Shown here in pieces: positions 19,755-35,443 of a DNA stretch of 35,443 nucleotides. Below the pieces are notes generated by a model. That model made no database searches, was not told where the DNA came from, and saw only the letters and a program-made list of their open reading frames with translations. Position 1 is the first letter of the stretch. Every line of letters begins with the position of its first letter. A program made the translations under genes and the position numbers. Where the stretch lies: positions 1-35,443 of the forward strand of contig CAWDSQ010000029.1 in NCBI GenBank assembly GCA_963804955.1, written 5' to 3'. The DNA is from an uncultured delta proteobacterium. GTDB lineage: Bacteria; Desulfobacterota; WTBG01; CAIYCZ01; CAIRTM01.

Positions 19755-21077
19755 ATGAAAAAAACAAGGTACGCGCTCCCTGTGGTTTTGCTTATCCTGC
19801 TTATTAGTTGCAAACAAGCGCCTGATACGGCATGGCAGGAAATTGACCCGTCGGTGGTGTATCCCGATTTTACCTACAAGGGCTTGAAGCCATCGTGCTC
19901 GTCCTGTCCGGCATATACTGATCTTGCAGGCAAGGCCCATGCCGCCGGAGACCCTTCCTTTAAATTCTTTTTCCGAGAGGGTTCCTCCAATAATCTGGTA
20001 GTGTATTTTCAGGGCGGCGGCGCGTGCTGGGCCACTGAAAACTGCCTGTACGAACACACCTACACCGGGGAGGTGGAGAGTTTTGAAAATGTAAAATTTC
20101 TGCAAATGCTCAGCAGGGGCTCTTTCGAGTATCTGGGCTATGGCGGGATATTTGATTTCTTTCATGCAGGCAATCCATTACGGGACTGGGATTTCGTCTA
20201 TATCCCGTACTGCACGGCCGATCTGCATGCCGGGGCGCATGATAATGCCTACCCTTCAGCTCCCGCGGTGCCGACGGCACAGCTCCATGACCAGTACGGC
20301 GGCGCTGCTCAGACCATACGCCACCGGGGCGCGGTCAATTTTCAGGCGGTGCTCAAGTGGATAGCGGAAAACCGCGCTTTGGGCAGCGCCGATAAAATTC
20401 TGGTAACGGGCATAAGCGGCGGGAGCTATGGGGCCATGCTGAATTTTTCAAACATATGCGAGGCATTCCCGGACTCAACCGCGTATCTTCTGGGCGATGC
20501 AGGCAATGGAGTCATCCCCCCGGGATTTCTCGGCACGGCCGCGCCCATCTGGGGAATGGAACTGCCGGCTATTGCCGAATTCGCCGGCAGCGATTTCAAC
20601 ACCATCACCATTGCCGGCTTTTATGCAAAGCTGGCCGACCATTATACCGGCAGCAGGATTGCGCAGTACACGACCAAGTATGACAACACGCAGGCATGGT
20701 TTTACAATATACAGCTTGCCGACACCATCAACTATCCTGAAACGTGGGGCATCGGTGAGAATGACAACCCGGGCACAGTTCATTCCGGCGGAACATGGGA
20801 AGAGCTGGTGGAAACATGGAGCGCCAGCATGCAGTCGCTCCTTGACGCAACTGTCGCGGGCCTGACCGCGGGCAATTACAGGTATTACGTCGGTGAGGGC
20901 CGCGATCATACCGTGCTTATGTCGAGAAAATTTTATACGGAGAAGTCGGGCGGAGCATCTTTTGTTCAGTGGGTTGATGCTTTTATTTCGGGCGACACAC
21001 TGCCTGCTAGCCTGGAGTGCGCTTCCTGCGGAGATCCTGTCAAAGGCGCCGGGGAAAAGCTGTATATGCATAACTGA
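19755..21077 (+). CDS. Pectinacetylesterase-family alpha/beta hydrolase lipoprotein
   Basis: Lipobox LISC; VYFQGGGACW, YIPYCTADLHAG, GISGGSYG nucleophile elbow, DHT. Confidence 0.88.
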   Translation: MKKTRYALPVVLLILLISCKQAPDTAWQEIDPSVVYPDFTYKGLKPSCSSCPAYTDLAGKAHAAGDPSFKFFFREGSSNNLVVYFQGGGACWATENCLYEHTYTGEVESFENVKFLQMLSRGSFEYLGYGGIFDFFHAGNPLRDWDFVYIPYCTADLHAGAHDNAYPSAPAVPTAQLHDQYGGAAQTIRHRGAVNFQAVLKWIAENRALGSADKILVTGISGGSYGAMLNFSNICEAFPDSTAYLLGDAGNGVIPPGFLGTAAPIWGMELPAIAEFAGSDFNTITIAGFYAKLADHYTGSRIAQYTTKYDNTQAWFYNIQLADTINYPETWGIGENDNPGTVHSGGTWEELVETWSASMQSLLDATVAGLTAGNYRYYVGEGRDHTVLMSRKFYTEKSGGASFVQWVDAFISGDTLPASLECASCGDPVKGAGEKLYMHN

Positions 21078-21150
21078 AGCTGTGCAGGGCCTTGCTTCGG
21101 GATGCTCATTACATCAGGGTACGGCCACTGATTAATCCGAAAAAAGTACT

Positions 21151-21468
21151 TCAGCAGGCTGCGGAAGCGGCTTGCTTTTTAACCGGCGGAATCTTTTTAT
21201 ATTCGCCCGCATTGCGCTGAAGGGTATCCCACATATCCACATCCATTTGAAGCCCCAGCCAGAAATCCGGAGTTGTATTAAAATACTGCGCAAGGCGAAA
21301 GGCGGTATCGGTTGTAATTGATCTCTTTCCAAGCACAATCTCGTTTACCCGCACTCTGGTAATGCCGATAGCCGTGGCAAGCTGCAGCTGGGTCATGCCC
21401 AGCGGCTCCAGGAACTCATATTTCAATATTTCCCCCGGAGGGGTTGGCCGCCTGTGTTTAGGTAACAT
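21151..21468 (-). CDS. higA: HigA family antitoxin (Xre HTH)
   Basis: PTPPGEILKYEFLEPLGMTQ...ITTDTAFRLAQYFNTTPDFWLGLQ. Confidence 0.93.
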   Translation of the reverse strand: MLPKHRRPTPPGEILKYEFLEPLGMTQLQLATAIGITRVRVNEIVLGKRSITTDTAFRLAQYFNTTPDFWLGLQMDVDMWDTLQRNAGEYKKIPPVKKQAASAAC

Positions 21469-21479
21469 GGTGCACCTCG

Positions 21480-21761
21480 TTAATGGTATTGGGTTAATTC
21501 AAGGTTTACAATTTCGCCGTCTTTAAACAGAAAGCATAATCTCCATGGCCCGTTGACCGAGATAGCCCACTGGCCTTTGCGGTCGCCGCGGAGCTGATGC
21601 AGGTGGTTTGAAGGCGGCGAGCAGATGTCCTTGAGCTCCCGTGCACGGTGAAGCATATCCATCTTCCGCAGCAGCTGTGCAACAAGTTCCGGCTGCACTC
21701 TTTTGTGCCTGCCGTTATGCCAGAAGTCTTCAAGCCATGGTTGGGCAAAAGATTTGATCAT
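21480..21761 (-). CDS. higB: HigB (RelE/ParE family) toxin
   Basis: MIKSF...PPSNHLHQLRGDRKGQWAISVNGPWRLCF...YH, upstream of higA. Confidence 0.93.
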   Translation of the reverse strand: MIKSFAQPWLEDFWHNGRHKRVQPELVAQLLRKMDMLHRARELKDICSPPSNHLHQLRGDRKGQWAISVNGPWRLCFLFKDGEIVNLELTQYH

Positions 21762-21767
21762 TGGTTT

Positions 21768-21796
21768 AGTGTATCATGCAACGGTACTCGTTGCAA
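21768..21796 (-). promoter_or_regulatory. higBA promoter with operator-like inverted repeat
   Basis: TTGCAA-N17-TACACT; GTATC-N7-GGTAC at 21771-21787. Confidence 0.6.
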
Positions 21797-21928
21797 GCAG
21801 TACGTTTTTGGAGCTGCCGAATTGCTGTATTCATTTATTCATGGACGTCCCCTTTTTGGTTCACAGATTCCTGTATCATTGCAAGTCAACAAAGCCAACA
21901 ACGCCCCCTTAATGCCTCAAAATAATCC

Positions 21929-21956
21929 TTGCATATAATTATATAAGAATTATTAT
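21929..21956 (+). promoter_or_regulatory. brnTA promoter with palindromic operator
   Basis: TTGCAT-N16-TATTAT; perfect palindrome ATATAATTATAT at 21933-21944. Confidence 0.55.
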
Positions 21957-21962
21957 AGCAAT

Positions 21963-22253
21963 ATGGATAAAATAATATTTACCTGGGATGATCGTAAAGC
22001 AACCGAAAATCTGCGCAAGCACGGCGTTTCATTCGAAGAAGCTGCCACCGTATTTATGGATGAACATGCCAGACTTTTGCATGACCCGGATCATTCCGGT
22101 GATGAAGACCGTTTTATTCTTCTTGGATTGTGTTCAGTCATTCGTTTGCTTGTTGTCTGCCACGCCTATAGAAGTAATGATCAGGAAATACGAATCATTT
22201 CATCTCGAAAAGCAAATAAACAAGAAACCAAACAGTACAGAGGTTTTATATGA
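21963..22253 (+). CDS. brnT: BrnT family toxin
   Basis: FTWDDRKATENLRKHGVSFEEAATVF...EDRFILLG...IRIISSRKA. Confidence 0.93.
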   Translation: MDKIIFTWDDRKATENLRKHGVSFEEAATVFMDEHARLLHDPDHSGDEDRFILLGLCSVIRLLVVCHAYRSNDQEIRIISSRKANKQETKQYRGFI

Positions 22254-22462
22254 GAAAACAGTACGACTTTTCAAAATCAGTAAAAAACCCTTATGCAAAG
22301 CACCTTAAAAAACAGGTAACGCTGCGGCTGGGCACCGATGTCGTCGCATATTTTAAATCGCTGGCGGCGGAGACAGGCGTGCCGTATCAGAATCTGATTA
22401 ACCTCTATCTTCAAGACTGCACCCGATCAGGCAAAAAGCTCACGTTGAAATGGGCGTCCTGA
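22250..22462 (+). CDS. brnA: BrnA/CopG-like RHH antitoxin
   Basis: ATGA overlap with brnT; YDFSKSVKNPY...VTLRL...YFK...PYQNLINLYL. Confidence 0.9.
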   Translation: MRKQYDFSKSVKNPYAKHLKKQVTLRLGTDVVAYFKSLAAETGVPYQNLINLYLQDCTRSGKKLTLKWAS

Positions 22463-22886
22463 ATTTTTTTGGATTGCAGAGTGTGGGTGCGCTTTAGTTT
22501 GTGTGATTTGTCAACAACGCCCAAGAATTTGGACGCCCCCTTTTATTTCCAAAAAAAATGGAGCAACAACACCCTTTTTTAGCGTTTGGGGAGAAGTGCC
22601 TTCCACGTCTTCTGCTGCATATTTTTCCAGTGTCCGCCAAAACGGGCAAGATTCATAACGCCCCCCCCTTTTTCCCTCTTCGGCTTCTTCCGTATTATCC
22701 AATTGCATCTTTAAAACGGCTATTGTATAAAGCGCGGCAGGTACGGCAACAGCCGCACCCTATCAGGCAGGTATCGACAAATATATAATATGACAGACAA
22801 CCGATCTGCCTTCTGAAAATGCTTGGCCGGCATGCATCCCTCTACCGGAATGCTGCTGACGGCTTGCCTAACTGAGCATATGCGCC

Positions 22887-22976
22887 ATGGACAACTTTTC
22901 AATGTTCATTATCAGCCTCGCCCTGGTTTTTTATACAGTAGGCGTATGGAGTGAGCGCCTTTCAGGCAGACTCAAG
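22887..22976 (+). pseudogene. N-terminal fragment of an HsmA/TIGR03987-like membrane protein
   Basis: IISLALVFYTVGVWSERLSGRLK, then abrupt loss of similarity into repeat DNA. Confidence 0.6.
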
Positions 22977-23126
22977 ATGCCAACTGTTGAGAATCCTGCA
23001 TTTTGTCCAACCCTTTTTATTGCACCGCATACGCCGTGCGTTATACAAACAGAAGTTAGAATTCAGAAGCCAGAATTCAGCAGGGCTAATCAGAATCCAA
23101 AAGCCCGTAGTCAGAATAAAAAAGAA

Positions 23127-23489
23127 CTACATGCTGAACCGGTCACAGTTTGTGACCAGTTCATTTTTTTCTTTCCGGGTTAGCTGAAACATGAAATCTT
23201 GAGGGAAACGGCTGCTATTTCGTTTAACCGCCTGTTTTAGGACTTTTGTATCTACAGCGTAGAGAGCTGCCAGATCGCGGTCGAGCATTACCTTCTGCCC
23301 GCGGATCAGGTAGGTTTTATTGTCTTCAGGAAAATTATCGCCTATGGCGATGTTTTTCAGAAGGAGGCAACTTAAACACTTCGTATTTTTTGCTTTCCGC
23401 CCTTTTAGGGCGAAAGCAAGCCCCCTGCTGTGCAGATGGTTGTTGGCTACGTTGAGTTCAACCGGAACAGGCTGCTTTGAATCCCCCAT
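23127..23489 (-). pseudogene. ORF6N-domain DNA-binding protein, C-terminally truncated, with in-frame ~126-bp insertion
   Basis: [12 protein letters not shown][42 aa][50 protein letters not shown]. Confidence 0.8.
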
Positions 23490-23681
23490 GATCCCCGCCT
23501 TCTTGCATGCACTGACTTCCGAATCTTTTATGACGCGTTCTTTTTGCGTGCTGGTGTTTTTAAAGGCAAAAAGAAGCTTAATTTTTATAAACCTATTAAA
23601 AAATGATTTCTGTGTCAATTAAAATAATAATTATATAAAAAATAATTCAGAAGCCAGTAAGAGCGCGATGCTCGCGCTCTA

Positions 23682-23781
23682 CAGTTCAGAGTCATGAGTT
23701 CGGAGTTCAGAGTTCGGAGTTGGGAGTTCGGAGAGCGAAGAGCGAAGAGCGAAGGACAGAGGCCAAGGAACTGAGGTCAGA
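23682..23781. repeat. Degenerate heptamer tandem repeats
   Basis: (GAGTTCG/GAGTTCA)n then (GAGCGAA)x3. Confidence 0.75.
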
Positions 23782-23944
23782 AAAAAAGCTGTCATTGCAG
23801 CAGTTGGAGCCGTGTAGTACAAAAACATCCAGCCACCTCAGCCCGACCCTCTCCCCCATACAACAATGGCGGAGAGGGAGAAAGATCAGAAACCGGTAGA
23901 TGGAAGCCGTGATTAATCGGGGCCATTATGATCGCCGGGCCCGG

Positions 23945-24052
23945 TACGGAGAGAAGTGCAGGATCTCTTGTAGAGCATGACCTTATGCCCGCGGATGAGG
24001 TACATTTTATTCTTAACCAGTTCAACCGGAACAGGCTGCTGTGAAGCCCCAT
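23945..24052 (-). pseudogene. Second ORF6N 5' relic (frameshifted)
   Basis: Shifted frame reads QQPVPVELVKNKMYLIRGHKVML; nucleotides 24019-24060 match 23454-23496. Confidence 0.7.
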
Positions 24053-24086
24053 GAAGCCCCCTGCCCCCGTTTAGTCTCCGGCATTC

Positions 24087-24449
24087 TTACAAATATAATT
24101 TGACCGGCTCAGCGCTGCTGTCCGGATTACAATTCTGCTCAACAAAATCGGCTATTTTCTTTTGATGATCGGGCAGAATGTGAATAAACTGTATGCCCAT
24201 ACCGGCAGGAGACGCGTTGGAAACAGATTTCGTCCAGACGACGCGTCCGTCAATGGCCATAATTTCAGGATCGCCGGGCAGCTGAAGATTTAAAGAAAAT
24301 TCAGCATCGATTGGCAGAAGGTGACTGGTTTTAATAAACATGCCGGAGCTGCTCATATTCATGACATAAGCATCCCGGCCATTTCCGGTATCACATGACA
24401 GAAGCTTCAGATTGATCGATATGCGCGCTGTTTTTCTTAAATCATCCAT
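24087..24449 (-). CDS. Stand-alone PilZ domain protein (c-di-GMP receptor type)
   Basis: RKTAR (RxxxR), NMSSSG (D/NxSxxG), GRVVW and GMGIQF motifs. Confidence 0.85.
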   Translation of the reverse strand: MDDLRKTARISINLKLLSCDTGNGRDAYVMNMSSSGMFIKTSHLLPIDAEFSLNLQLPGDPEIMAIDGRVVWTKSVSNASPAGMGIQFIHILPDHQKKIADFVEQNCNPDSSAEPVKLYL

Positions 24450-24720
24450 GTACCCGCCTCATCTAGTTTTATAAGGACCGATAAGTTTTATGCAGATTCA
24501 ATCAATAAAGCCGGTAGAGCGGCAAGCCTGGAGACTGTCATACAATCGCAACCTGCTTATATAAAAATGTTGCGACTTTCGTATAAATGTTAAAGCAAAA
24601 AATAGTAATCCGCTTTTTTTTAGCCTGCTGTAAGTTTAATTAAGCGAAAGATATTTAATATTAAATAGACATATTAAAAATAATTCTATGTGTCAATGAA
24701 TAAATGAAGAAAAATAAAAA

Positions 24721-24879
24721 AAGGCTGTAGGCTTTTAGGCGGTAGTGAGACAGAAGGGTTCAGGGGGCGGGGTTCAGGGATCAGGGGGCAGAAGTCAGAA
24801 GCCAGGAGTCAGAAGGCGGAACAAGAAAGGCTGTAGGCGGCAGGCAGTGGGGACAGTTAGGAGTTAGGAGTTCGGAGTG
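24721..24879. repeat. Degenerate heptamer tandem repeats
   Basis: AGGCTGT, GGGTTCA, AAGTCAG and GGAGTTA 7-mer runs. Confidence 0.7.
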
Positions 24880-24940
24880 GCATCCGGCGGGACGCCCAAT
24901 AAAACGTAAGGGGCCGCCGCGGCGGACAGGATGTAACCCC

Positions 24941-25144
24941 CTATGCTTTTGATGCAGGGCTCTTTTCTTTTCGTGTTTCCCAGGCAAACCGGACGCACTG
25001 CGAAAGCCATTGAAGCTTCTGTTCGGGCTTTAAAACGCTAAACTCCGTATGCCCGTCAAAAAGCTCATCGGGCAGAGCCCGCACATTGGCCTTCATGCCC
25101 TTTGAATCCCGTTTTGCTGCACCGGGTGAGCGCTGTGTCTTCAC
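24941..25144 (-). CDS. Small hypothetical protein coupled to the NTase
   Basis: GTGA overlap with the upstream stop; AGGAGG RBS; FDGHTEF..LKPEQKLQWL. Confidence 0.6.
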   Translation of the reverse strand: MKTQRSPGAAKRDSKGMKANVRALPDELFDGHTEFSVLKPEQKLQWLSQCVRFAWETRKEKSPASKA

Positions 25145-25665
25145 GCTTCCTCCTCAGGAGAGCTTAAAAGTTTTTTCAGCATCCGGATATCGAACAAATC
25201 TTTTTCCCGCGGCGGATCAATGGCTTGTTTAAGGGCCAGAAGCTTCTGCCGGGAAAGCACCCGTATGGATTGGTTTTCAATATCGATCAATTCACTGTCA
25301 TCTTTAAGTTCGTTGTAGGAAAGGCTGTCTGCTATAAAAAGATCAACCTGCCGGAATGGCTTGTCAGGATCAACAAAAGTAAAAACAAGAGCGTGCTTTT
25401 CTTCGACAAACATTTTTCTTGTTGCAGGGTCAAGCAGCGATTCGGCAGGCACAGGAGCACGAGGTTTGAGGCGCAGCTTGTGCATTGCGCCGAGAAATCT
25501 TTTAAGATTTGCCCGGCGTAAATCCACAGACAGATCAATATCCATGGTAAGGCGCTCGACACCCTGAACAACGAGGGCGACCCCGCCGCAGACAATAAAA
25601 TCCACACCGCTTTCTTTGAGCGTCAAAAGTATTTCCGAAAGATGGTTTAAAGCGCTCGTGGGCAT
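25141..25665 (-). CDS. Nucleotidyltransferase (DUF6036/AbiEii-like, pol-beta fold)
   Basis: IVCGGVA...RLTMDIDL, VDLF and LLALK...REKDLFDI motifs. Confidence 0.8.
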   Translation of the reverse strand: MPTSALNHLSEILLTLKESGVDFIVCGGVALVVQGVERLTMDIDLSVDLRRANLKRFLGAMHKLRLKPRAPVPAESLLDPATRKMFVEEKHALVFTFVDPDKPFRQVDLFIADSLSYNELKDDSELIDIENQSIRVLSRQKLLALKQAIDPPREKDLFDIRMLKKLLSSPEEEA

Positions 25666-25848
25666 GTGTCAACCGTACGGATATGCGTCGTGCATCATAT
25701 GTGTTTGTACATATAACTAAATGCGTTTATTTGCAACAGGCATGCGGCACTATGTTCGCAGGGGCGTTCGGCTGGAGCAATTAACTAAATCGTGTAGACT
25801 ACAATCAAAGCATAGTTGAACGTGTCAGCAGTAGTGCTTCATTGCGTG

Positions 25849-25913
25849 CCATTTCCGCTTGACGGGAATCCCTTTTGGCACGCAGAAAAATGATTCCGGA
25901 CAAGCCGGAATGA
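25849..25913. repeat. GTCAT-type double-hairpin repeat (degenerate)
   Basis: CCATTTCCGCTTGACGGGAATC ... GATTCCGGACAAGCCGGAATGAC. Confidence 0.55.
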
Positions 25914-25996
25914 CTGGGTGTGTTCCTCGATACCACATGAATACCGGTTATAGTAATTTATTAAAAGCTCTAAACGCCCGGTGTGCGGTGTAAAAA

Positions 25997-26045
25997 ATTC
26001 TGAATCTTAATTCTGGATTCCGACTTCTGAATTCCGGCTTCTGAC
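25997..26045. repeat. Heptamer tandem repeats (TTCTGAA-like) after the ABC-F stop
   Basis: ATTCTGA ATCTTAA TTCTGGA TTCCGAC TTCTGAA TTCCGGC TTCTGAC. Confidence 0.65.
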
Positions 26046-26046
26046 G

Positions 26047-27680
26047 TCACGCCGCCTGAACAGTGCGCTGGGTTTTGCTGACATAGTATTCGTAGCTGCC
26101 TTCATAGATGATCATCTCGCCGTGGTCGATCTCAAACACGCGGCCCACGAGGCAGCGGAGGAAATAGCGGTCGTGGCTGACCAGCACCACCGTGCCGGTA
26201 AACTTGGCAAGGGCCTGCAGCAGTATCTGGCGCGACTGGAAATCGAGATGATTGGTGGGCTCATCCAGTATCAGCAGATTTAAGGGCCGGGCAAGCAGCG
26301 TTGCCAGCAGCACCCTGCTTTTCTCGCCGCCGGAGAGCAGCTTGATGCGCTTCTCAACAGCATCGCCCTGAAACAGAAATGCCGCGCAGAGATTTCTGAC
26401 CACGCCGATATTTGCCATGGGTATGGCATCCTGCACAGTTTCGTACACGGTTTTGTCGGGATCGAGCAGGTCCATGGCATGCTGGCTGAAATAGCCGGGC
26501 ATAACGTTTGCGCCGATGGCAAGGCTGCCGGTTGTGGGTTCGGTCTGGCCGGCCAGCACTTTCAGAAAGGTCGACTTGCCCGCGCCGTTGACGCCAACCA
26601 CGGCGATCTTGTCCTGCCGCCGGATGGTGCCCGATACGCCGCCGAAGACCGATTTCTCTGTGCCGTCGTCATGCTGCCACACCTTGCCGAGATTCACAAT
26701 GCGGGCCACATCATCGCCCGAGCGCGGCGGCTCGGCAAACTCAAAGGATACGACCCTCTGCTCGGGCGGCAGCTCGATGCGCTCGATTTTATCTATCTTC
26801 TTCACCCGCGACTGCACCTGCGAGGCATGGGAGGCCCGGGCGGCAAAGCGCGCGATGAAGTCCTCTTCCTTGGCAAGCATTTCCTGCTGCCGGCGATAGC
26901 TGGCCAGCAGCTGCTCGCGCCTGATCTCGCGCTCGCGCAGGTAAAAGTCGTAATTGCCCGAATAGGTGGTGAGGCTCTGGTTGGCAACCTCGATAATGCG
27001 CGACACGATGCGGTTCATGAAATCGTGATCATGGCAGGTCATGAGAAGCGCGCCCTTAAACTGCGTGACAATCCAGTCTTCGAGCCAGACGATGGACTCA
27101 AGGTCAAGATGGTTGGTCGGCTCGTCAAGCAGCAGCACATCGGGGTTGATGGTAAGTATTTTCGCCAGCTCGATGCGCATTTTCCAGCCGCCGCTGAAGG
27201 ACTCAACGGGCCGGTCATAATCATCGGGGCCAATGCCAAGGCCGGTCAGCACGGTCTGCGCGCGAGACTCAAGGTCATAGCCGCCGCTGTGCTCGAACTG
27301 CTCCACGGCATTGCCGTAGCGCTCAAGCAGCTCGCCATTTCCTCATCAGCCATGGGCAGGGCCATGGCCTGCTCCATCCGGCGTATCTCCTCCCCCAGGC
27401 TCATCACATCCCCTACGGCCGACATGACCTCGCCAAGGGCGGTCCGGCCGGCCATATCGCCCACATCCTGGGAGAAATAGCCGATTTTCGTGCGCTTCGG
27501 GACCGATATATCGCCAGTGTCAGCCTCTTCCTGACCGGTAATGAGGCGGAAGATGGTGGTCTTGCCCGCGCCGTTTGGCCCCACCAGGCCCGTGCGCGTG
27601 CCGGGCAGGATCTGAAGGCTCGCATTCTTGAAGAGGATCTGCGAGCCGTGCTGCTTGCTGATATTGGTAATATGGATCAT
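26047..27680 (-). CDS. ABC-F family ATPase; frameshift near 27330
   Basis: GPNGAGKT, FSGGWKMR, LLLDEPTNHLD, second Walker A GVNGAGKST, LSGGEKSR, VSHDRYF. Confidence 0.93.
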
Positions 27681-29059: not shown

Positions 29060-29109
29060 AGTCAGTTTGTTCATTTTCTTTACCTATTCACTTAACAAGG
29101 AGAAAAAAA

Positions 29110-29380
29110 ATGGGACACGGACCAGCAACACAATGGGGAGAAGACAAGGCGTCCGATTACAAGGCCAGGCTTGGGGTATACATGTTTATCATTCTACGTC
29201 ATCGTTTATGCCGGCTTCATCGTCATCAACCTCACCAGCCCGAAATCCATGGGGACAATCCTCTTCGCAGGGCTCAACCTCGCCGTCGTCTACGGGTTTG
29301 GCCTGATTCTTCTGGCCATCGTCATGGGGCTTATCTACAACCACATGTGCACCCAGAAAGAAAACGAACTCAACAAATAA
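29110..29380 (+). CDS. DUF485 (YjcH-like) small membrane partner of ActP; frameshift near 29190
   Basis: AAGGAG RBS; MGHGPA..DKASDYKARLG joins YVIVYAGFIVIN...GLNLAVVYGFGLI. Confidence 0.85.
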
Positions 29381-29405: not shown

Positions 29406-31314
29406 ATGACTTACATCGCATCACCATTTGCCATCGGTATATTCGTCGCTTTCGTGCTGGGCGTGTTGGGCCTGTCGTCCTACTTCGCTAAAAAAACCCA
29501 GTCTTCCAAAGGGTATTACGCCGCCGGCGGAACCATCCACTGGGCCGTGAACGGCATCGCCTTCGCCGGAGACTATCTTTCAGCCGCCTCCTTTCTCGGG
29601 ATCTGCGGCATGATCGCCTTTGACGGCTATGACGGCTTTCTTTACTCCATCGGCTATCTCGCCGGCTGGGTGGTGGCCCTGTTCGTGGTGGCCGAGCCCC
29701 TGAAGCGCTTCGGGAAATACACCTTCACCGATGCGCTCAACTACAAGTTCAGCTCCAAGGGAATCATGTTCACCGCAGCCATCAGCACCCTGGTGGTGTC
29801 GGTATGCTACCTCATCCCCCAGATGGTCGGCGCCGGCGACCTGGTCACCCCGCTTCTGGGGCTTCCCCATTACGCGGGCGTCATCCTCGTCGGCGTCATC
29901 GTTATCTTCATCGTGGCCACCGCGGGCATGACCTCAACCACCTATGTGCAGTTCATCAAGGGCGGACTGCTGATCGTCTTTTCAACGATCCTGACCATCG
30001 CCATCCTCAAGAACGGCATTAACACCCCCCCGTATGCAAACTATCACAAGTTTCAAAACCATCGAAGCCACCCTGACAAACGACGCCGTTACCGCGGTGG
30101 CGGATCCGGCCTACACCGTCGCCGGCACCTTCAAGGACGGCAAGAACCTCTTTGCCAAACTCAGACAGGACGGCGTTGCCTCCTGGTGGCAGTGTGAGCG
30201 CCAAAGACGGCGGAACAGTGCTGAAGGAAGCCCTGTCCATGACAAAGACCGCCGACGGGAAGATCCTGTATAACGGCGAGCCGAAGGAGGCCAAGAAATT
30301 CTTCCAGGTCGGCCATGCCAGCAAGATCATCGTGGACGGCAAGGAAGTGGAGAAAACCGGCGCCCTCGGGCCCTTTGAATTCTTGGCCACCATTGATCAT
30401 CCGAAGTGGTCCGCTTTGCCAAGGCAGCCGTCAAGGACGGAAGCGACAAGGTCACCGTCTGGAGGCAGAACCCCACCTCGGGCTGCAGACATCATGCGGC
30501 CGGGCCTCAAGTTCAAGGTCGACAAGGGAGCCGACTTCATGTCGCGCCTGAATTTCATTTCGCTCATGATCGCCCTGTTCTTCGGCACCTCGGCCCTGCC
30601 CCATATTCTCATCCGCTACTACACCGTCCCGAGCCCCAAGGATGCCCGCAAGTCAACCATCGTGGCCATCGGCTCCATCGGCTTTTTCTACATTCTGACC
30701 CTGTTCATGGGCCTTGGCGCCATGATGACGCGGCGTTCTTGACATGGAGAGCAGCAACATGTCGGCGCCGCTGCTGGCGAAATACTTCGGCGTCACGATC
30801 TTCTCCTGCATCTGCGCCATCGCCTTCGCAACGGTTCTCGGAACGGTGAGCGGGCTCATCGTTGCGGCCTCAGGCGCGGTGGCCCATGATCTGATGACGG
30901 GATTTCTGGGCATCGAGATGACGGACAAGGGGCAGGTGAAGGCAGGCAAAATATCAGCGGTTGTTGTCGGCATCATCGCCATTATCCTGGGCATTTTATG
31001 CAAGGGCATGAATGTTTCATTTCTTGGTCGGCCTTGCATTTGCAGTTGCCGCCTCGGCAAACCTGCCGGCCATCACCATGCTGCTGTTCTGGAAAAAGAC
31101 GACCTCCAAGGGCATCGCGGCATCCATCGTGGTCGGCATGGTCACGGCGCTGGGCATCATTCTGCTGTCGCCCAGCACCTATGTCGACCTGTACGGCCTG
31201 CCCAAAGCCTCAGCGCCGATACCCCTTGACAACCCGGGCATCATTTCAATACCCCTGGGCTATCTGACGCTTATTGTCGTATCGCTGTTTACGCAGAAAA
31301 AAGCCGCCGCCTGA
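29406..31314 (+). CDS. actP: Cation/acetate symporter ActP (sodium:solute symporter family); several frameshifts
   Basis: NGIAFAGDYLSAASFLG, YLIPQMVGAG, GTSALPHILIRYYTVP, AFATVLGTVSGL and AFAVAASANLP motifs across consecutive frames. Confidence 0.9.
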
Positions 31315-31349: not shown

Positions 31350-31391
31350 ACGGGGGAGAACAGCTTGTGGGGTGTTCTCCCCCGTTTTTTT
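31350..31391 (+). terminator. Intrinsic terminator after actP
   Basis: 13-bp stem ACGGGGGAGAACA/TGTTCTCCCCCGT followed by a T-run. Confidence 0.8.
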
Positions 31392-31521
31392 ACCGGCCTT
31401 TCGCACAGGCCGGGGAAGGATTGTTTGCCTGTGCTTCTTGACAGGAATGCAGTCCGCCGTGTATTCTGTCAGACACACGGCAGCCCGGGTAAGGATTCAG
31501 CAAACAAATAAAGGTTAAGCG

Positions 31522-34463
31522 ATGTTTGCCCCGCACATATCAACTCAGTGGAAGTCCTTTGCGGTACGGTTCGTTTTCCCGACGGCTGTCACCATAGCGC
31601 TGTTTGTCATCGCCTTCTTTTCCGTTATTATCCCCGCCATTGAAAAAAACAGCATGGACCGCAAGCGGGAAATGATCCGCGAGCTGACCAACTCGGCCTG
31701 GAATATTCTCGCGAAGCTCGAGCATGATGAAAAGCAGGGACTGCTCACGCGGCCGCAGGCCCAAAGCCAGGCCATCGAGCAGATTAAAAACCTGCACTAC
31801 GGCCAGGAGATGAAAGACTATTTCTGGATAAACGACATGCACCCGCGCATGGTTATCCACCCCTACCGGACCGATCTCAACGGCAAAGACCTGTCCGATT
31901 ACACCGACCCCGAAGGCAAGCGGGTTTTTGTGGATTTTGTCGACCTGGTGAAGCGGCAGGGCGCCGGCTATATGCAGTACATGTGGCAGTGGAAGGATAG
32001 AGAGGACCGCATCCTGCCGAAGCTCTCCTATGTCAAAGGGTTCCAGCCCTGGGGCTGGGTCATCGGAACCGGCATTTATATCGACGATGTCCAGGTGGAA
32101 ATCAGGGAAATCACGCGCAACCTTTTTGAAATTTCCCTTTTCATCCTGCTGATCATCTCGCTGCTGCTGGCGAGCATCATCAGGCAAAGCTACGCCACGC
32201 TCCGGCAGCAGCAGCTCGCGGAGCAGGCCCTGCGCGATTCCGAAGAAAAATACCGCACCCTTGTCGAATCGGCAGGCGAAGGCATGCTCATGGCCCTTGA
32301 AGGCACCTATATGCATGCCAACCAGACAATAGCTGCCATGCTGGAATACGACAAAAGCGAGTTTGCCGGCATGCCGGTGCGCACGGTACTGGCAGAATCA
32401 AACGGCCCGCAGAGCAGCCTGCTCCTTGAGGAGCTGCTGGCCGGCAAATCGGTTCCTGCAACCTTTGAAGCGCGGCTCAAAACAAAGTCGGGCGCAACCC
32501 GGGATGTTATTCTGTCGGCATCCCCTATTGAGGTCGGCGGCAAAACCGGCTTCATGGCCGTGGTCACCGATATTACCAAGCGCAAGCAGGCAGAGGATGC
32601 CCTGGGCCGCAGCGAAGAAAAATTCAGAACACTTGCCAACAATCTCAACGTGGGCATTTTCCGGCGGACCCTCGGCCCGAACCCGAAATTTATCGAGGCA
32701 AATCCTGAACTGGTAAAACTGCTGGGCTACGCAAGCAAGGAGGACCTGCTGGCGACCCCGGTCATAAGCCTGTACTGCAACCCCGAAGACCGCAAAACCC
32801 TGGAGCCGAAAGCATCTGCCGAGGAATTGAAAAGGGAGATCGTCAGGCTCAAGAAACAAGACGGCTCCGTATTTATAGCCTCCATCTGGGGCGTCATGGT
32901 CGAAGACGAAGACGGCGTGCCGCGATACTGCGACGGCATCATGGAAGATATTACCGAGCTGCATATGCGGGAGGAGGAAGGGGAAAAACTCCTTGACGAA
33001 ACGCAGTCGGTGCTGCTGTTTTACAATCAGCCCCTTGGCGGCCTGCCCTGTCGCCAGCCGACACTATGCCATCCCGGCATGCCGATCGGGGAAGCGGTGC
33101 GCTTGCTGGAGCAGCAGCGCAACGAGGTCCTGCTGGTGCGCGATGCAGAGGGCAGGGACTGCGGCGTCATCACCGACCATGATCTGAGAAAGGCCGTGAT
33201 GCTCCTGCACGAGCATGAGGATCGCCCGGTATCCGAGATCATGTCGTCTCCCGTTATTTCACTGCCGGGCAATGCATCGGTATTCGAGTCCTGGTGGCTT
33301 ATGCAGAATAAGGGCATTGCCCATCTTTTCGTCACCGATACCGATGGCGCCATCATCGGCTTGATCAACAGCAAGGATATCGCCGCCATTCAGAAGTATT
33401 CGCCGGCGGTGCTGCTCTGGGAAATACGCAATGACACATCACCCGACGAGGTGATCAGGCATAATGAGGTCCTCCCCTATCTCATAACAACCCTTATCAA
33501 AAGCGGCGCGAAACCTCAAAGCATAAACCATCTGACCACCATCGTGATCGACACGATTCTGCAGAAGCTCATGGAATTTGCCATCCGGGAGCTGGGCCCG
33601 CCCCCGGTGCGGTTTGCTTTTCTGGTGTTCGGCAGCGAGGGCCGGCAGGAACAGACCCTCATGACCGACCAGGACAATGCGATTATTTTCGAGGATACCA
33701 GCCGCCGACCTGGAGTCATCGGTTGTACAGGCATATTTCCTCAAACTGGGCGCCATGGTCTGCAGATGGCTGAACCATGCCGGGTATCACTACTGCGATG
33801 GCAACAACATGGCGCAAAACCCCCAGTGGTGCCAGCCCCTTACCGTATGGAAGCGGTATTTCAGCCAGTGGATTCATGCGGCTTCGGCTGAAGACCTCCT
33901 GAAAACAAAAATATTTTTCGACTTTCGCTGCGCCTATCGGAGACGGCGGCCTCGCGGGAGAGCTGCGGGATTTTCTTGCTGCCATGGTTGCCGGCAACCC
34001 GAGATTTTTTCAGCTGCTGGCCCGCAATGTTCTGCCGCTCAGCCCGCCCATCGGGCTGTTCGGAAAATTTGTCGTCGAGTCGGTGGACGAGCACCGCAAG
34101 GCCTTTGACATTAAAAGCGCCATGATGCCTATTGTCGACTATGCCCGCATCTATGCCCTCAAGCACGGCGTACCGCGCCACCAACACGCTGGAGCGGCTG
34201 CTGGGGCTGCATGAGCGCGAGCGTACTGACGCTGCAGAATTACCAGGAAATGGTGCAGGCGTACAGCTATCTCATGCAGATACGGCTGCAGGTTCAGGCT
34301 GCGGCAATAGGGTCCGGGAAAGCGAAAGCCCGACAATTATGTGACCCCGAAAAACCTGACCTCTATCGAGCAGAAGCTTCTCAAGGAAATTTTCTCCCAG
34401 ATAAAAAACTTCCAGGCAAAGCTGAGCTATGATTTCACCGGCCAGCTCGGAGGCGTCCAGTGA
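31522..34463 (+). CDS. Membrane sensor: TM-Cache_2-TM, two PAS, CBS pair, DUF294 nucleotidyltransferase, DUF294_C; several frameshifts after 33695
   Basis: YFWIND..MVIHP..KLSYVK..WGWVIGTGIY (Cache); DITKRK/DITE PAC ends; GVITDHDL..VSEIMS (CBS); FGSEGRQEQTLMTDQDNA (33631-33675); CDGNNMAQNPQW, IFFDFR, DIK..PIVDYARIYAL..NTLERL; ends GGVQ-TGA at 34461. Confidence 0.88.
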
Positions 34464-35220
34464 TTCTGGTAATCTGCGATACCCATTGCTACTACGACAC
34501 CATCAACCAGCAGCTTGACTATGCCGAAAACGTGCTCGGCCATGACGGTCTCCTGCATCATTCACCTGGGGGACTTCGGCATCTACAGATCCCATTTGCA
34601 CGATTTTTTCATAAAAAAAGGGCAGCGCTTTAGGCGGCCCCTGTATTTCATCGACGGCAACCATGAGGATTTCAATGCTCTTGAGAAGCTGACCAAAAAG
34701 TATCAGGCCTTTTTCACCTATCTGCCCCGCGGCACGGTTCACTGCATAGAGGGCTACCGTTTTCTGGCTCTGGGCGGAGCGGCCTACATGGACTCCATGC
34801 TGACCGAACAGGGTGCGATCATAACCGATCAGCAGATTAATGCCTGCCTGGCCTTTGCCCGGGCAGAGGTCGATATTATTTTGACCCATGACTGCCCGAC
34901 CGGTATCGGCGTGCCCAGCACGCCCGGCCTGGACCATTTCGGCGCTACCGGTTTTCCCCGCGAGCCAGGAGCTGGCTGCGCATTTCCAGCCGAAGCTGTG
35001 GCTGTTCGGCCATCATCACAAATGGTTTTCCTGCAGCGACAGCCATACGTCCTACTATGGCCTGGAGGGTGCATGGAAAGGCTTCGGGCTTCTGGACGCG
35101 GACTTCCAGCTGACCATCATCAAGCACAGGCTTGAGTGGGAAAAAACGCCGTTTATAGAAAAGCTGCTGGCGAAATTAAAAATCATTCGGCCGGATGGAC
35201 CGCGGGAGCTGTCTGACTAG
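34460..35220 (+). CDS. Calcineurin-like metallophosphoesterase; two frameshifts
   Basis: GTG 34460 overlaps the upstream TGA; motifs DTH, LGDFG, DGNHE, THDCP and FGHHH. Confidence 0.88.
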
Positions 35221-35443
35221 TGGGCCTTCACATTTGATTTTGTTAGATGAGATACAATCTCCCGTACATAACCCCAGCCTGTAATTCCGGCTGTCCGGAA
35301 GTCTTTTCCGCCACGGCGGAAGAATTCCGGACAGCCGAAATGACGCTGGAATTTAATTTTTCAATTAACGTTGTCCCTGATTTGGGTATCATAGCATTGA
35401 GAAAGATTTTGAAAACAGCTTAAATTCAAATGTGAAGGCCCAC
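35220..35443. mobile_element. MITE-like element with perfect 18-bp TIRs
   Basis: GTGGGCCTTCACATTTGA ... TCAAATGTGAAGGCCCAC; homologous to 27849-28010. Confidence 0.8.

Follow-up and report, generated by a model that had tools for sequence, protein, structure and literature searches.

The stretch of DNA analyzed here (the window) is a complete contig, C29, of 35,443 bases from an uncultured delta proteobacterium whose assembly comprises 36 contigs and 4.26 Mb at 87% completeness. Near one end it carries a gene for a transmembrane receptor with a DUF294 nucleotidyltransferase as its output, followed by a gene for a metallophosphoesterase (MPE); together these may form a two-gene signaling module beside DUF485-actP acetate-uptake genes. 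The receptor is a variant of a known but uncharacterized module in which COG2905 proteins are paired with exonucleases, and it is conserved in many phyla. The genes and domains concerned are as follows:

31522..34463, forward strand: receptor gene, transmembrane segment (TM) 1-sCache_2-TM2-PAS-PAS-CBS pair-DUF294-DUF294_C, from Pfam and orthologues (978 aa there), with five insertions
31570..31644, forward strand: predicted TM segment 1, residues 17-41 (Kyte-Doolittle 19-residue windows >1.8)
31654..32118, forward strand: sCache_2 periplasmic sensor, residues 45-199 (PF17200, E 5.2e-38)
32116..32187, forward strand: predicted TM segment 2, residues 199-222 (Kyte-Doolittle 19-residue windows >1.8)
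32245..32970, forward strand: two cytoplasmic PAS domains, residues ~242-353 and ~366-483 (PAS, PAS_9, and PAS_8 matches)
33034..33384, forward strand: CBS pair, residues ~505-621 (PF00571, E 3.9e-19, two stretches)
33475..33886, forward strand: DUF294 domain, split by the insertion at 33698 (PF03445 pieces 33475-33699 and 33713-33886)
33999..34436, forward strand: DUF294_C helical substrate-binding domain, in three frames (PF10335 pieces)
34460..35220, forward strand: MPE, 252-254 aa in orthologues, cut by insertions at 34547 and 34962 (Pfam, orthologue alignment)
29111..29380, forward strand: DUF485 (YjcH-like) small membrane protein (PF04341, E 4.6e-8, in frame 29096-29380)
29406..31314, forward strand: actP-like sodium:solute symporter (SSF) with six single-base indels (SSF Pfam pieces in four frames)

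Pfam bears out the order of receptor domains from sCache_2 to DUF294_C given in the original prediction, as well as the DUF485 and SSF/ActP genes placed directly upstream. The continuous reading frame of ~980 codons that it described is not there. Under translation table 11, the frame opened at 31522 ends at 33891 after 789 amino acids (aa), short of a full receptor, and a continuous reading must cross insertions. This 789-aa frame holds sCache_2, both PAS domains, both CBS domains, and the N-terminal half of DUF294, whose C-terminal half is read from the frame 33665-34108; the DUF294_C pieces end at the stop at 34461-34463. In intact orthologues, which run to 976-1021 aa, DUF294_C is unbroken (E 6.6e-45). 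Pfam finds neither the cyclic nucleotide (cNMP)-binding domain PF00027, whose place is taken by Cache and PAS, nor HisKA or HATPase_c in the receptor of the window or its orthologues. Immediately before the transferase, on its N-terminal side, stands the CBS pair, a type of module that as a rule binds adenine nucleotides.

The sensor domain matches the ligand-binding domain of PscD (PscD-SD; 5g4y, E 3.6e-37) and Adeh_3718 (4k08, E 4.9e-35), and residues 37-239 match the NCBIfam model MctS (E 5.3e-28). Passages of a structural report describe PscD-SD as binding glycolate, acetate, propionate, and pyruvate through Tyr90, Trp92, His103, Phe126, Tyr143, Trp145, and Lys156, residues given there as identical in McpP and Adeh_3718 (PMC5062169). 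The equivalents in the window receptor are Y100, W102, H113, F136, Y153, W155, and K167, so that all seven are identical to those of PscD. The same seven are kept in nine of nine sequences compared (the window, three orthologous receptors, and five neighboring histidine kinase paralogues) and are invariant across ten aligned receptors. On this conservation, the Cache domain should bind C2/C3 carboxylates (acetate, glycolate, propionate, or pyruvate), which upholds, as a prediction, the earlier proposal of carboxylate sensing.

At the other end of the polypeptide, the nucleotidyltransferase motif reported earlier (GS...DQD) is present in the window as FGSEGRQEQTLMTDQDNA at residues 703-720, with G704-S705 at 33631-33636 and D716-Q-D718 at 33667-33675; it is a pol-beta-type G-S...D-x-D motif, with a third carboxylate also present. 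The window's PF03445 pieces score 83.5 and 60 bits (cut-off 21) and its PF10335 pieces 59.6 and 36.6 bits (cut-off 22.5), and each family scores 152.9 bits in orthologues. G704, S705, D716, Q717, D718, and D800 are invariant in ten full-length orthologues of 58-90% identity. Across 56 DUF294 domains, G71, S72, D83, D167, and the motif glutamine are likewise invariant, with D85 in at least 90%. A search of the PDB by sequence with the DUF294/DUF294_C module returned no match at E<=1. Its AlphaFold2 model has a pLDDT of 94.4; in fold searches, GlnE and DrrA are the only chains that closely match the whole module, a shared fold of this class of adenylyltransferases that spans transferase and helical domains and on which Foldseek agrees. 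There is also a weak match to PF08335 (GlnD_UR_UTase, E 9.4e-6) in orthologues, and one paper groups DUF294_C with the C-terminal domains of GlnD and GlnE. Judged from the model and the motif, the output module shares both its fold and its catalytic motif with GlnE and DrrA, which are protein adenylyltransferases, and the relation of DUF294 to GlnE that had been given in the original prediction is thus backed by fold.

The second gene begins with GTG at 34460 within the receptor's TGA, giving the GTGA overlap at 34460-34463 that had been noted before, and is spread over three frames. All five metal motifs ascribed to it are present (DTH, GD, GNHE, THD, and GHHH), and D7, H9, D38, N67, H68, H143, H184, and H186 are invariant in 48 family sequences. 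PF00149 matches the window fragment at E 5.7e-5 and orthologues down to E 7.7e-15, and the predicted structure has a pLDDT of 92.8. At E<=1e-5, databases contain 445 proteins of this family, labeled "predicted phosphodiesterase" or "metallophosphoesterase." By its residues, the protein is an active-looking binuclear metallophosphodiesterase, apparently coupled to the receptor in translation.

When the window is aligned to the intact orthologues of genomes G001 and G003, single-base insertions appear in the receptor gene at 33698, 33936, 34173, 34220, and 34314 and in the phosphoesterase gene at 34547 and 34962 (positions for these two genes relative to G001), while actP carries insertions at 30054, 30192, 30487, 30731, and 31024 and a deletion at 30398. 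The intact 633-aa ActP of G001 maps by tblastn over its residues 1-633 to three frames of the window. In DUF485, the ATG at 29111, with AAGGAG upstream, is in another frame than the Pfam match, which implies a frame change within that gene too. Altogether there are 13 single-base indels in ~6 kb of coding DNA, none of them in a homopolymer run and all of them absent from the intact 976-1021 aa orthologues.

Contig C29 is syntenic from end to end with positions 133388-166169 of contig C30 in the same assembly, at 86-97% identity, which points to a second strain or haplotig within the bin. Over the receptor and phosphoesterase, the two copies are 94-95% identical. The C30 copy has 12 single-base events of its own, 11 of them insertions, and four positions are common to C29. 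Public metagenome contigs (four public runs from three studies, 88-99% alike to the window) lack one base at 30489, 31024, 33698, 33936, 34173, 34220, 34324, 34548, and 34962. The best-matching public DNA runs share 0.22-0.23 of words with the window and so represent relatives; among public sequencing runs, no RNA run is listed as carrying the window sequence.

A density of 13 frame-breaking indels in ~6 kb, with four positions recurring in the second copy, is what might be expected if DUF485, actP, receptor, and phosphoesterase were genuine pseudogenes decaying in this strain, and the four shared positions mean that a few of the indels could be real. Decay of the whole cluster is nonetheless improbable. 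Over residues 1-727, protein identity to intact orthologues between breaks is 91-92%, with no in-frame stops; nearly every change adds one base away from any homopolymer; a different set is found in the C30 copy, which is 95% identical; the ABC-F gene at another place on C29 is split as well; and nine of the extra or altered positions are without the added base in independent contigs. Most likely, to judge from these alignments, the 13 indels are assembly errors and the copy in the cell is intact. We read the errors as of an insertion type, arising where the assembly kept two close strains apart. The window copy is, in consequence of such errors, a poor template. The fusion of sensor to transferase, for its part, is no artefact of assembly, as intact orthologues of 976-1021 aa occur in ten related genomes and full-length relatives in many phyla.

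Whether the two genes are transcribed apart from actP can be approached through pattern matches alone, of which three lie in this part of the window:

31367..31385, forward strand: terminator-like hairpin and T run 3' of actP (consensus match only)
31438..31467, forward strand: sigma-70-like promoter TTGACA-18-TATTCT before the receptor (consensus match only, 10/12)
35285..35300, forward strand: terminator-like hairpin 3' of the phosphoesterase (consensus match only)

Terminator-like sites number 13 in the window against 7.8 +/- 2.7 in shuffles, and sigma-70-like promoter sites nine against 4.7 +/- 1.8. As actP is followed by a terminator-like site and the receptor gene preceded by a promoter-like one, receptor and phosphoesterase may be a transcription unit of their own. 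A sigma-54 pattern (TGGCAC-N5-TTGCW, up to two mismatches) has 11 matches in the window against 27.5 expected; none is upstream of the DUF485, actP, or receptor start, and one lies in the receptor gene (minus strand) and one in the phosphoesterase gene. The gap between actP and the receptor differs in length among relatives at ~31510, with 293 extra bases in G001, ~180 in G003 and the C30 copy, and none in the window, as an intergenic insertion or deletion.

Elsewhere on the contig, the ABC-F type ATPase gene (26047-27680, minus strand) is split into two overlapping open reading frames (ORFs), likely one more frameshift error on C29. Positions 21000-26000 have a G+C content of 45-48% against ~55% and contain an AbiEii-like fragment, an ORF6N-domain gene, and a PilZ gene; this may be a small mobile or defense-related island.

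In a set of 40 related genomes, matches reaching into DUF294 were found in 14 genomes among the matches listed; in ten of them the ORF is unbroken, at 976-1021 aa, and can be aligned over its full length with 58-90% identity. Thirteen close loci could be tested for the partner, 12 from other genomes and one from C30, a 14th being truncated by the end of its contig; all 13 have a 244-256 aa MPE as the next gene downstream, after a gap of 0-12 nucleotides or with an overlap, so that the linkage on which the original prediction depended is conserved. In the close loci, actP or acs adjoins the pair or is near it. Most of them continue with a histidine kinase, whose Cache domain is ~60% identical to that of the receptor and which carries HisKA and HATPase_c, and with genes for a sigma-54 response regulator, an M54 peptidase, a GcvH-like protein, and an MFS transporter. 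This continuation with kinase and regulator falls past the end of the window's contig and was overlooked in the first reading; the Cache kinase and sigma-54 regulator suggest that one ligand could drive both a transcriptional and a post-translational arm.

A wider scan took one genome per species over 185,579 species and gave 596 confirmed relatives, from which 79 loci were kept; four of these hold only Cache-kinase paralogues, leaving 75 receptor loci. Partners were counted with three profiles built on Pfam-checked neighbors. The counting profile leaves out a wrong-frame ORF (L021:10889-11641), and loci L040, L078, L081, and L031, with frameshifts or overlapping ORFs, were counted by profile matches only. 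The loci are divided as follows:

13/75 loci: the window MPE type, downstream (deltaproteobacterial, Riflebacteria, and Kiritimatiellia records)
19/75 loci: a second MPE type (~19% identical), directly upstream (Bacteroidota, Ignavibacteriota)
19/75 loci: a PHP domain fused N-terminally, in proteins of 1139-1276 aa (Chloroflexota, Armatimonadota, Acidobacteriota, Gemmatimonadota, and others)
1/75 loci: both MPE and PHP
23/75 loci: none of the three partner profiles

Within the last group, two loci have a convergent third MPE type, one a convergent HD hydrolase, three a convergent AP_endonuc_2 protein, and one a soluble CBS-DUF294 protein beside a protein with an RNase T domain; several are at a contig edge. 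Partner type is structured by clade in a maximum-likelihood tree built from 56 DUF294 modules: it requires 12 changes where shuffles require 33.8, and both PHP and the window MPE type arose at least twice. The suggestion that the phosphoesterase stands in for an exonuclease fits this pattern, in which the partner changes by clade from one MPE type to the other, to a fused PHP domain, or to an RNase T exonuclease.

A few individual loci deserve mention in their own right. The Desulfobacter latus record (L101, 3158-9593) encodes an 830-aa Cache-PAS-CBS-DUF294 receptor and, in addition, a divergent soluble CBS-CBS-DUF294 protein (494 aa) with a 681-aa protein that has an RNase T/DnaQ-type exonuclease domain at its C-terminal end. 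In two Bacteroidota loci (L063:8102-9643 and L068:8601-10070, both minus strand), the third MPE type and a Crp-family cNMP-binding regulator are convergent to the receptor. At Bacteroidota and Ignavibacteriota loci, a conserved protein of 407-470 aa is encoded close to the receptor gene or immediately upstream of it (L032:2065-3288, L033:3126-4538 on the minus strand, L047:4660-5925, L059:4626-5897, and L079:4627-5886); its copies are 42-58% identical, with a signal-peptide-like N-terminus and no Pfam match, and it may be an outer-membrane channel.

In 52/75 loci, a gene for an SSF of the ActP-like or DUF4212 type is found no more than 6 kb away. The ActP encoded here and at many receptor-linked loci is 628-667 aa long, and its match to the SSF profile falls into two stretches, separated by ~90-100 inserted residues between profile positions ~167 and ~196.

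As for novelty, the databases already contain the system: the receptor has 1965 relatives there at E<=1e-10, under uninformative names such as "PAS domain S-box" or "DUF294 nucleotidyltransferase-like." Its DUF294 part is 54-57% identical to soluble cNMP-CBS-DUF294 proteins, and PF00027 occurs in the soluble relatives only. Nor is nucleotidylation a fresh idea, having been put into print for the soluble relatives in passages of PMC5715377, where Pflu5625 is also placed in the CrbS/R acetate regulon. Other accounts describe COG2905 genes as cofit with a DUF4212-SSF symporter, with the speculation that COG2905 is required for symporter expression (Price et al., bioRxiv 10.1101/072470); the Pseudomonas putida homologue PP_0354 as acetate-induced and uncharacterized (passages of PMC8402216); and a DUF294 gene as sharing an operon with dnaQ (a table note in PMC3412718). 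PA3232-PA3235 are co-regulated with actP (PMC9765439).

The COG2905 architecture of one member of that group, PA3233, is presumably that of the soluble relatives. Whole-word literature searches for DUF294, PF03445, DUF294_C, and PF10335 returned no functional paper, and a search combining actP, nucleotidyltransferase, CBS domain, and exonuclease returned no paper; searches on locus tags gave no functional study, and for the Cache-fused form of DUF294, literature searches (supplements aside) found no paper.

A mechanism can be envisioned from these parts. The periplasmic sCache_2 domain would read a C2/C3 carboxylate outside the cell and the CBS pair the energy state inside, and the two inputs would set the balance between opposed reactions. 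In one, the DUF294 module would attach a nucleoside monophosphate (NMP) to a hydroxyl of a target protein; in the other, the partner phosphoesterase would hydrolyze that phosphodiester, in the manner of the bifunctional GlnD and GlnE. The target likely belongs to monocarboxylate uptake or activation (ActP/DUF485, Acs, or their regulators). Here we infer the protein as substrate, the nucleotide used, the role of eraser, and the target. We tentatively favor this carboxylate- and energy-gated switch of protein nucleotidylation, with the phosphoesterase as remover and a tie to ActP-type symporters, at slightly under even confidence. Three considerations lead to it: the only close structural relatives of the module are protein adenylyltransferases; writer and hydrolase remain side by side or are joined in one polypeptide, for which GlnD and GlnE give a precedent; and at least three unrelated hydrolase folds interchange that have in common the cleavage of nucleotide phosphodiesters with release of 5'-NMP. 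The more specific picture is rather doubtful in its full extent: that an outside acetate-type carboxylate switches a GlnE-like transferase and a phosphodiesterase, that ActP/DUF485 or acetyl-CoA synthetase is reversibly nucleotidylated, and that this is a class of transmembrane signaling with NMPylation as output, spread over many phyla with interchangeable eraser folds.

Several findings weigh against the switch. The nearest characterized relative of the MPE partner is Dbr1, a 2'-5' phosphodiesterase; PHP partners resemble pAp phosphatase, TrpH/RNase AM, and RNase RNM/AM, and the RNase T partner a PolC/DnaQ-type exonuclease. Such relatives have nucleic acids or nucleotides as their substrates, and the system could equally well act on a nucleotide or on RNA. 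The 23/75 loci that match no partner profile (several at contig edges or with other convergent hydrolases) and the 23/75 that have no SSF gene within 6 kb also count against it. No biochemical activity is reported for any family member, and passages of PMC5715377 describe a negligible effect of Pflu5625 deletion on growth with acetate.

The likeness of partners to pAp phosphatase, RNase RNM/AM, and PolC/DnaQ exonucleases, joined to the speculation in parts of Price et al. that COG2905 is needed for symporter expression, would also agree with synthesis by DUF294 of a free nucleotide signal, such as a short 2'-5'/3'-5' oligonucleotide, which the partner degrades and which controls symporter expression or activity. 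This is unlikely, in that the writer and eraser of a diffusible messenger are not usually coupled in translation one to one. It is less likely still that the pair acts on RNA, with addition of 3'-end nucleotides against trimming that tunes the stability or translation of symporter mRNA. There are bona fide exonuclease families among the partners, and the symporter cofitness and the speculation on expression in those same parts of the preprint are in keeping with it; yet close matches to the whole fold are confined to GlnE and DrrA, the RNA uridylyltransferase MEAT1 is only a weak Foldseek row (TM-score ~0.2), no RNA-binding domain is found by Pfam in the architecture of window or orthologues, and membrane anchoring is odd for an enzyme that tails mRNA. 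Finally, adjacency alone is no proof of shared function, and the phosphoesterase might be a mere operon neighbor with an unrelated housekeeping role. Nothing specific speaks for this, and it is very hard to credit when the gene is kept in 13/13 close loci at 0-12 nucleotides or with overlap, and another phosphoesterase fold is fused into the same polypeptide in 19/75 loci.

DUF294/COG2905 proteins are common and belong to acetate regulons of well-studied bacteria; the receptor form adds a predicted ligand (from the PscD-type pocket), a predicted chemistry (from the GlnE/DrrA fold), and a predicted opposing enzyme. That MPE, PHP, and DEDD partners have replaced one another repeatedly is an argument that the system cannot do without its hydrolytic half, the cleavage of a nucleotide phosphodiester. 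The question of DUF294 function can now be put to a direct test in which the stimulus is defined. Should protein nucleotidylation prove to be the output, it would widen the range of outputs of bacterial membrane receptors and add a layer of post-translational control on the uptake of short-chain carboxylates.

Dbr1 is the nearest solved relative of the partner phosphoesterase by sequence and fold and shares its GNHE motif, but the match is limited to the catalytic core (model residues 1-215 on Dbr1 8-263); the partner has 254 aa against 347-351, lacks a counterpart of the C-terminal part of Dbr1, and has DxH as its motif I. The sensor is homologous to those of PscD, McpP, Adeh_3718, and MctS-type kinases, with a seven-residue pocket identical to that of the first three, whereas the output is a nucleotidyltransferase in place of a chemoreceptor signaling domain or a kinase. 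DrrA/SidM of Legionella, at 12-13% identity to the output module, is a secreted effector that acts on host Rab and has no sensor domains.

GlnD and GlnE pair opposing activities under the control of ligands, a logic that the receptor and phosphoesterase resemble. The G-S...D-x-D motif and the PF08335 match add to this likeness, but no PDB entry matches at the sequence level at E<=1, the receptor has a membrane input, and removal would here fall to an MPE, PHP, or DEDD protein instead of an HD domain or a second transferase domain. A further comparison is with the COG2905 and DnaQ/RNase T module, represented by Pflu5625 (P. fluorescens), PP_0354 (P. putida), PA3232-PA3235 (P. aeruginosa), Sama_1525, and Psest_0349. 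The two have in common the CBS-DUF294-DUF294_C output (54-57% identical over the transferase part), the link to acetate or monocarboxylate symporters and acetate regulons, and the pairing with a phosphodiester hydrolase; they differ in that the receptor exchanges the cytoplasmic cNMP-binding input for sCache_2, two TM helices, and two PAS domains, and in that a metallophosphoesterase takes the place of the exonuclease.

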